Assembly: GCA_037381985.1 (NCBI GenBank)
Contig: JARRQH010000010.1
Coordinates: 53 to 64,052, forward strand
Reading direction: 5' to 3'
From: Pseudolabrys sp.
GTDB taxonomy: Bacteria > Pseudomonadota > Alphaproteobacteria > Rhizobiales > Xanthobacteraceae
Length of the DNA: 64,000 bases
In this document: piece by piece, positions 14,787-16,118 of the stretch
Numbering within the stretch: the stretch's first letter is position 1
Layout of the letters: each line of letters opens with the position of its first letter
Translations under genes and position numbers: made by a program
The notes under the pieces: model-generated
The model's input: the letters and a program-made list of their open reading frames with translations, nothing else
The model's database searches: none
Told to the model about the DNA's origin: nothing

Positions 14787-15404
14787 CTACGAAGTCGCGA
14801 TTTTTTCTTTCTCCTTCACATGCAGAATGCGATCTATCAGGCCCCACTCCAAGGCTTCCTCGGCAGTCATAAAATGGTCGCGATCCATAGCACGCTCAAA
14901 CTCTTCATAAGTTCGGCGACAATGCTGGGCATAAAGGCGCGTCATCCGCTCCTTGGTTCTCTTGATCTCCTCGGCATGAATGAGCATGTCCGATGCTTGT
15001 CCTTGGAAGCCGCCTGACGGCTGGTGGACAAGGATGCTGGCGTTTGGCAGTGCGGCCCGCTCACTAGGCTCTCCCGCCATCAACAGAAAAGAGCCCATTG
15101 ACCGCGCCGTCCCCATGCAAAGCGTATGCACGGGCGCACGGATGTGGCGCATGGTGTCATACATCGCGAGGCCGCTGCTCACGACGCCACCTGGCGAGTT
15201 GATATAGAGATTGATCGCCTTCTTCGAATTTTCCGCTTCAAGAAACAGCAATTGCGCGCACACCAGCGCTGAAACGGCATCAGTGACTTCGCCGTTGAGA
15301 AAAATGATTCTCTCGCGAAGCAAGCGGGAATAAATGTCGAACGACCGCTCGCCTCTGCTGGATTGCTCGATAACCACAGGGACGAGTTGCATCGCTTCGC
15401 GCAT
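14787..15404 (-). CDS. clpP: Accessory ClpP-family protease proteolytic subunit
   Basis: [37 protein letters not shown]; catalytic Ser (ARSMG), His (HQPSGG) and Asp (DRDHF) present; not in a tig-clpP-clpX context. Confidence 0.93.
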
Positions 15405-15447
15405 CGCGAACTCCAGTTTTTCCGAATCTGATGAACGGTGCGCTAAC

Positions 15448-15807
15448 TCAGGCGGCAAGCATAATGGCAGGGCTGTTGCCGTTTGCGGCAGCCTTCGTCA
15501 TACGACTGTATCTCAAATCCGTCAGTTCGTGGGTGACCCACAGACTGGTTCCTCCGCTCGGGTTTGGAGCGATTCGGAACGTCACGGTGCTTTCGAGATA
15601 CGGCGGGGCGCGATCGCGCATCCGATAGCGGACCTCTTCACCGGGCGTTATCGAAACCGCCTCCGAATCGGCCAACGCTTCTTTCGGCAGCCATTGTTCC
15701 CGAAGCGCCGGCACCGTAATCGCACGCCAAATCTTCTGTGGCGACTCATCGAATTCATATTCAAGTTCGATGCCGTTTGTCCGCTTTTTGGCCTTTTCGT
15801 TATTCAT
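15448..15807 (-). CDS. SRPBCC/AHSA1-like domain protein with an ssrA-tag-like C-terminus
   Basis: [29 protein letters not shown]...[18 protein letters not shown]; ends [16 protein letters not shown] overlaps the ArsR stop (ATGA). Confidence 0.85.
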
Positions 15808-16118
15808 TGACCCATATCCTTCAGCAAGACCTTGAGCGCTTCGATGCGTACAGGCCAGTAGGCGCGGTATCTCGCCAACCATTGCGCGATGAAAGCCAAC
15901 CCTTCGGGATCGACCTCATAGTTCATGAAACGCCCCTGGCGCTCTTCGCGCACCAATCCGGCGTCTCGAAGAACGGCAAGATGTTGCGACATTGCCGGTT
16001 GGCTGATCGCCATACCCTCACGCAAGGCACTGGCGTTCATGCTGCCGATCGCCAGCTTCTCGAAAATCGCGCGGCGAGTCGGATCGGCTAAAGCGCGGAA
16101 TATCTCGTTCGCAGCCAT
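15804..16118 (-). CDS. ArsR/SmtB-family transcriptional regulator
   Basis: IFRALADPTRRAIFE, ISQPAMSQHLAVLRDAGLVREERQGR; no cysteines. Confidence 0.93.
   Translation of the reverse strand: MAANEIFRALADPTRRAIFEKLAIGSMNASALREGMAISQPAMSQHLAVLRDAGLVREERQGRFMNYEVDPEGLAFIAQWLARYRAYWPVRIEALKVLLKDMGQ

Follow-up and report, generated by a model that had tools for sequence, protein, structure and literature searches.

A three-gene operon, arsR-SRPBCC-clpP, was found on the minus strand of the window (the whole stretch of DNA that was analysed, 64,000 nucleotides from Pseudolabrys sp.); its SRPBCC protein ends in a mimic of the tag encoded by the tmRNA of the same genome, and this ending is conserved among homologous loci and tracks clpP. 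The cassette is probably a degron-gated anti-repressor circuit, in which a constitutively destroyed SRPBCC protein would report ClpXP capacity and induce a backup ClpP.

In the circuit as proposed, ArsR would very probably keep the operon low from a palindrome across the -10 box (Table 1). The SRPBCC tail would very likely act as a working ClpXP degron, and its AN-x-N half would more tentatively, though still probably, engage SspB; the protein would be continuously destroyed by SspB/ClpXP and would accumulate once ClpP activity fails. Stabilised SRPBCC would then, in the reading somewhat favoured here, bind ArsR as an anti-repressor, and, the pocket being lost, the signal would be abundance and not a small molecule. 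The induced paralog (ClpP3) would probably join host ClpX, restore sensor turnover and shut the operon again. The favoured trigger would be that the housekeeping ClpP is lost or covalently inhibited, because an extra ClpP helps only if ClpP is limiting. A three-gene circuit that senses proteolysis had been suggested in the preliminary description; that reading gains from a tail that is conserved, host-tag-like and linked to clpP, and from an operator palindrome that fits autorepression. Natural ClpP inhibitors exist (accessible parts of PMC10776993 and PMC9854587); natural products, its suggested trigger, are not favoured over tag overload or phage by any result here.

Table 1 Features of the arsR-SRPBCC-clpP cassette and its surroundings (positions in the window).
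Feature	Position	Strand	Basis or remark
arsR, ArsR/SmtB-family repressor, 104 aa, no Cys	15804..16118	minus	PF01022/PF12840, NF033788
SRPBCC/AHSA1 (helix-grip) gene, shortened, 119 aa	15448..15807	minus	PF08327 across residues 22-64; AlphaFold, Foldseek, hhalign
ssrA-tag mimic encoded by the SRPBCC 3' end, 13 residues	15451..15489	minus	sequence; low-confidence (likely disordered) in the model
clpP paralog, 205 aa	14787..15404	minus	PF00574; triad S102-H127-D176, motif GTARSMG
RBS GGAGT of clpP	15410..15414	minus	conserved within the spacer of about 45 bp
Palindrome CATAAG-N6-CTTATG, predicted ArsR operator	16126..16143	no strand	overlaps the -10 box
Predicted promoter TTGCCA-N17-TTATGT, 6 nt before ATG (leaderless)	16125..16153	minus	from conservation
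45-nt direct repeat, copy 1, hairpin, terminator-like	14670..14714	no strand	after katG, flanks the cassette
45-nt direct repeat, copy 2, 89% identical	16174..16218	no strand	after fabI

ORF reading and the Pfam and NCBIfam scans agree on a single minus-strand operon, with an ATGA overlap at the arsR/SRPBCC junction and a gap of 43 bp between SRPBCC and clpP, as had been described from the sequence beforehand. No toxin domain was found in the cassette proteins by the Pfam and NCBIfam scans. True ArsR-SRPBCC or SRPBCC-ClpP fusions were rejected: among 7,994 scored candidates four longer matches were obtained, three of them apparent frameshift read-throughs and one an ordinary double AHSA1; the 223-aa ORF of locus L001 is likewise explained by a frameshift. 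The sole tRNA of the window is tRNA-Ala(GGC) (57266-57341).

The overlapping junction bears on a piggyback mechanism, in which SRPBCC would drag bound ArsR to ClpXP as an adaptor, the repressor would be degraded, and switching on would need an active protease. A tagged partner could conceivably deliver the repressor in trans, and ATGA translational coupling would give near 1:1 amounts of the two; coupled 1:1 synthesis would, however, hold the operon on, and the mechanism provides no off switch and no reason for a co-encoded ClpP. It is considered improbable.

The tag of the own tmRNA (contig C35) reads (A)ANDNYAPVAQAA, 13 residues counting the tRNA-borne Ala, and sspB adjoins ssrA in the genome. 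The SRPBCC tail equals this tag in length (13), in the position of AN and in the terminal AA; the ending had been called a hard-coded ssrA-tag mimic in the preliminary description, and the comparison with the genome's own tag that was proposed there bears out the name in length, register and terminus. The pattern ANxN-x5-9-AA* fits one of 25,676 ORFs of at least 50 aa genome-wide, namely the SRPBCC ORF, and a terminal AA occurs in 162 of 3,606 crudely called genes (4.5%); the match of the tail to the tag pattern is far from chance. The N-terminal half of the tag (AAND in E. coli) binds SspB. The tail ends in MLAA*, a free C-terminal Ala-Ala with hydrophobic residues before it; in an E. coli screen, endings of the [L/R]-L-A-A type proved to be strong ClpXP degrons (accessible part of PMC10862746), and the E. 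coli tmRNA tag sequence itself is given in the accessible part of PMC8138137.

Among 72 unique tails, A-12 is kept in 68, N-11 in 69, N-9 in 65, M-4 in 63 and the last two Ala in all 72, with positions -21 to -14 free to vary; the Ala codons differ between loci, the residues being constant. In 44 of 65 tails the distance of the AN motif from the end is 12 residues, like in the own tag, and ANDN itself is present in 12 of 120. Where the tag has its conserved Asp, the tails mostly have N, S or G (D in 6/72 unique tails); AAN-x-N, the SspB-side half, is retained in the main clade and missing from part of a distant clade, whose tails often retain AA alone. Because of the replaced Asp and the AA-only tails, the use of SspB is regarded as uncertain or dispensable. 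Host tags in 10 other genomes (ANDNYAEARLAA, ANDNNAKEYALAA, ANDNSVALAA, ANDDNYAPVALAA, ANDERFALAA) differ, so the tail mirrors the general tag class and not the exact tag of each host. One non-alphaproteobacterial genome with the cassette (G532, locus L145) has a one-piece tmRNA, the tag of which, ANDDNYAPVALAA, looks alphaproteobacterial.

The same residues bear on the nature of the trigger. With the circuit otherwise unchanged, the full-length mimic could sample the SspB-ClpX queue and be stabilised when ribosome stalling floods that queue with tmRNA-tagged proteins, a peptidase being added under translation stress. Such tag overload would account for the SspB-side AN-x-N kept in the main clade (N-11 in 69/72, N-9 in 65/72), which is needless for a plain ClpXP substrate, and sspB is present; yet the output of the operon is ClpP alone, without ClpX or SspB, and distant members keep AA only. 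We regard this trigger as rather unlikely and prefer failure of the housekeeping ClpP.

Conservation was read from the best 80 of 105 relatives in a scan of species genomes, one locus being cut by a contig end. All 79 complete loci have a terminal AA and clpP downstream (one clpP shortened by a frameshift), and arsR lies upstream in 80/80 (one arsR frameshifted). As these loci are mostly Rhizobium, and thus kin, the counts are not independent; for the same reason a genus-spread Rhizobiaceae sample was drawn, in which the SRPBCC gene was found in 29 of 151 genomes (26 of 135 genera). Four of the 29 carriers were already in the first set; the 25 further loci all have arsR, clpP, the operator and a terminal AA (23 by script, 2 by direct translation). 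Database homologues end in AA in 119/120 cases in one set and 120/150 in another, the 30 exceptions looking by eye like fragments, frameshifts or off-target matches (25 of them early-stopping matches); terminal AA was found in 36/37 database matches that reach the last strand but stop before the tail.

The tie to clpP was also read with the selection made from either side. When loci were chosen by ClpP alone (best 30 loci from 401 genomes; 18 paralogs, the own included, and 12 housekeeping genes), arsR and an AA-ending SRPBCC gene lay upstream in 17/17 of the other paralogs and in 0/12 of the housekeeping loci (0/11 without L125 of the unpublished genome G756). When 26 loci from 401 genomes were chosen by SRPBCC, the own locus and one duplicate having been dropped, terminal AA was found in 7/7 beside clpP versus 0/19 without clpP (0/18 without the control L100 of the unpublished genome G240). 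Kin not being independent, no P value is given. A check on whether AANxN...AA tails are conserved and co-occur with clpP had been proposed beforehand; the tail proves to be conserved and to track clpP. A second form of the cassette (L118-L124, L126, L127, L086, L093) has a full-length sheet and longer tails, e.g., IAANAPCMMLRAA, or only RRAA/WAA; its ClpP is mostly GFAASMG, and it may be an ancestral or independent version. Genome G359 carries two divergent cassette copies (C1:218991 and C2:571114).

The AlphaFold2 model of the SRPBCC protein (mean pLDDT 76.6) has a confident helix-grip sheet at residues 11-95, a 5-residue helix at 99-103 and then a low-confidence tail, with no long C-terminal helix closing the cavity. 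The top structural match in Foldseek was the AHSA1 protein MLL2253 (3q63), and YndB also matched; in hhalign the profile could be aligned to residues 7-101 of an ordinary member of 134 aa, with about 16 internal residues passed over and the terminal helix lacking. By eye, the terminal helix is absent from all clpP-linked members read and present in 19/19 controls without clpP; the extra loss of about 16 residues is limited to the main clade, the distant clade keeping the full beta-sheet. The C-terminal helix of the START/SRPBCC fold forms the ligand cavity (accessible part of PMC13525633). The START-fold cavity was thus not found, the AHSA1 fold itself being present, and the tag stands in the place of the pocket-closing helix, on which ground the protein is argued to signal by its amount. 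That it still senses a small molecule, e.g., a ClpP inhibitor, as thought for other AHSA1 proteins, with a tag that merely limits its lifetime, would be in keeping with the AHSA1 fold and with the full beta-sheet of the distant clade, but is very improbable given that no clpP-linked member read has the cavity-forming helix and that the main clade has lost still more of the domain.

The region upstream of arsR has a conserved CTTGC-N17-TATGT, about 6 nt ahead of the start codon, and lacks a ribosome-binding site; a scan with the generic sigma-70 consensus called no promoter there. Of 77 unique upstream regions (the own included), 73 have ATAAG-N6-CTTAT across the -10 box; the palindrome recurs in 25/25 further Rhizobiaceae loci and in Sinorhizobium meliloti, and has a single occurrence in the own genome. 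Its position over the promoter is consistent with autorepression of a leaderless operon by ArsR, with no wider regulon. Ordinary ArsR-SRPBCC pairs without clpP (L088-L099) have a related palindrome of the ATAACC..GGTTAT type, often in two copies, and the C-terminal helix of their ArsR is similar.

Cys is absent from ArsR here and in 72/77 homologs, leaving no metal-binding Cys motif. The stress laid on the Cys-free ArsR in the preliminary description was correct as an observation but does not set the cassette apart, since such an ArsR is the norm among ArsR-COG3832 pairs (accessible part of PMC2701414). The C-terminal amphipathic helix of ArsR, W-x3-h-x2-L-x3-L, is present in 77/77 homologs and by eye resembles the missing terminal helix of SRPBCC; homology between the two was not detected by hhalign (E 0.076). 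A more elaborate version of the circuit would have the sensor, its pocket-closing helix swapped for the tag mimic, capture this ArsR helix and pull ArsR off DNA; ordinary ArsR-AHSA1 pairs would then work as switches by helix swapping in general, and the cassette would be a horizontally spread proteobacterial defence against ClpP-blocking natural products or phage proteins. As a whole this version is unlikely, and the capture of the helix is speculative.

The ClpP paralog aligns over residues 5-194 to solved ClpPs with a normal N-terminus. Its Ser-His-Asp triad, earlier taken to be intact, is so: S102/H127/D176 are invariant in 44/44 aligned paralogs (44 of 78 alignable). The ARSMG motif, to which attention had also been drawn, is common and typical of a clade, not general: Arg precedes the catalytic Ser in 77/79 loci (76 ARSMG, 1 ARSIG; the remaining two AHSMG), is replaced in a Mesorhizobium-like clade (GFAASMG in 9/11 rows) and is replaced in 4 of the 25 further loci (AYSMG, AGSM; one more unread). 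As a defining mark of resistance it was ruled out, being not universal. In the ClpP tree 28 main-clade paralogs lie on one well-supported branch that mixes families, including betaproteobacteria; the 11 more distant ones do not group together. The ortholog is named clpP-3 in one annotated Rhizobium etli record.

Replacement of a dead housekeeping clpP by the paralog was also rejected. The housekeeping gene, upstream of clpX (G000:C302:7577-8159; L139, about 2078-2660), is frameshifted in the assembly, likely by an assembly error, because it breaks where the best-matching run has a coverage hole, and a contig from a sister sample, 98% alike, has 11 more letters there. clpP is essential in Caulobacter; a clpP1 deletion in S. 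meliloti is reportedly viable. ClpP2 and ClpP3 of S. meliloti are mentioned in the accessible part of PMC11929396. Agrobacterium C58 has three clpP genes, of which single and two double deletions are viable and the triple was not obtained (bioRxiv 10.64898/2026.04.17.719174), which counts in favour of the proposed circuit; the accessible passages of that source give no locus tags and leave unstated which C58 clpP corresponds to the cassette.

Mutual substitution of the C58 genes (accessible passages of the same source) counts against a reading in which SRPBCC acts on ClpP3 as a plug, assembly factor or unstable antidote, the cassette being a toxin-antitoxin-like unit with ClpP3 as its harmful part. 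So do the normal N-terminus and triad of the paralog and the Arg missing from one clade, even though Arg stands beside the active Ser in clade 1, the cassette is mobile, the spread of ArsR-COG3832 pairs is patchy in the manner of toxin-antitoxin systems (PMC2701414) and binding of ClpP2 has been reported for a START protein of mycobacteria (PMC13525633; both sources accessible in part). This reading is considered improbable, and induction of a backup ClpP is the one retained.

Turnover of PopR in Streptomyces depends on its C-terminal Ala-Ala. In Streptomyces lividans PopR is continuously degraded by the housekeeping Clp, and the backup clpP3 clpP4 are made only when that protease fails or an antibiotic hits (accessible parts of PMC12607617 and PMC9765437). 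The proposed cassette circuit shares with PopR-clpP3P4 a backup ClpP gated by a constantly degraded factor. PopR, however, is a single ClgR-type activator, whereas the cassette has an ArsR repressor and a separate degron-bearing START-fold protein; it forms a single mobile operon that occurs in Proteobacteria and encodes just one ClpP, and its degron copies a whole tmRNA tag. Because its regulator is unrelated, being of the ArsR family and no PopR/ClgR homolog, the cassette is not a member of the PopR system.

Two-gene ArsR-COG3832 (AHSA1/SRPBCC) modules were described by Makarova et al. 2009 (PMC2701414, accessible in part), and the cassette likewise has arsR directly followed by an AHSA1/SRPBCC gene, with an ArsR that lacks metal-binding Cys. 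Patchy spread, a similar ArsR C-terminal helix and an upstream palindrome are shared as well. Ordinary partners, in contrast, keep the terminal helix, with a degron or clpP in 0/19; and the cassette form, unlike the ordinary ArsR-COG3832 account, is also carried on 38 plasmid-collection records, some of them chromids or chromosomes. The accessible text of PMC2701414 makes no mention of clpP, and that of a 2026 START review (PMC13525633) has no occurrence of ArsR. The preliminary description knew of no account of the module: no description of the three-gene form was found in the literature searched, which lacked most subscription papers, but the logic is known from PopR-clpP3P4 and the ArsR-AHSA1 pair from PMC2701414.

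With the tmRNA tag and ssrA-like degrons, e.g., that of cleaved RseA (accessible part of PMC8138137), the tail shares a terminal [L/R]AA and an upstream AN-x-N at equal distance from the end; unlike either, it is hard-coded in a normal gene and always exposed, with no ribosome rescue or cleavage needed. As with the self-resistance ClpPs of producers (ClpP-ADEP; the clipibicyclene cluster; accessible parts of PMC12607617 and PMC9854587), the extra ClpP may cover for an attacked housekeeping enzyme. Unlike those, it has no biosynthetic cluster in sight: comparison of the flanking genes of homologs by clustering gave no link to natural-product clusters, and the flanks differ, the largest shared context covering 14/77 loci.

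The cassette follows a known backup-ClpP logic built from new parts. New in this analysis are the replacement of the pocket-closing helix by the tail and the conserved palindrome that spans the -10 box of the predicted leaderless promoter. If the circuit is true, it would account for why rhizobia and agrobacteria have an extra clpP and tolerate clpP deletions, and Proteobacteria would have an equivalent of the PopR backup circuit of Streptomyces, assembled from different components. The ArsR-AHSA1 gene pairs, which are common but unexplained, would for the first time become concretely approachable. The circuit would also provide a ready-made reporter with which ClpXP capacity could be read genetically and ClpP inhibitors sought, and it may mark a way in which cells tolerate compounds that target ClpP. 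Every step is testable in S. meliloti, because this species carries the cassette with operon, tail and operator.

The GC3 of the cassette is 0.62-0.68 versus 0.86-0.90 for its neighbours, and the cassette was found in 0/24 genomes of the same genus (68-99% complete). As judged from the assemblies of relatives, katG lies next to fabI without the cassette in five of six read, the sixth having no fabI in the stretch fetched; one terminator-like hairpin is present at the cassette site in 2/6 genus relatives. The cassette is accordingly a recent insertion. The adjoining katG (window 12485-14659) is 58-70% identical to the katG at the same site in six genus relatives, the values for oxyR and fabI being 75-84% and 87-96%, and is likely a replaced (xenologous) gene. 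The only match in the phage collection, a close relative, lies at 192-545 of the unannotated 4-kb record MT839836.1, which is possibly a bacterial fragment.
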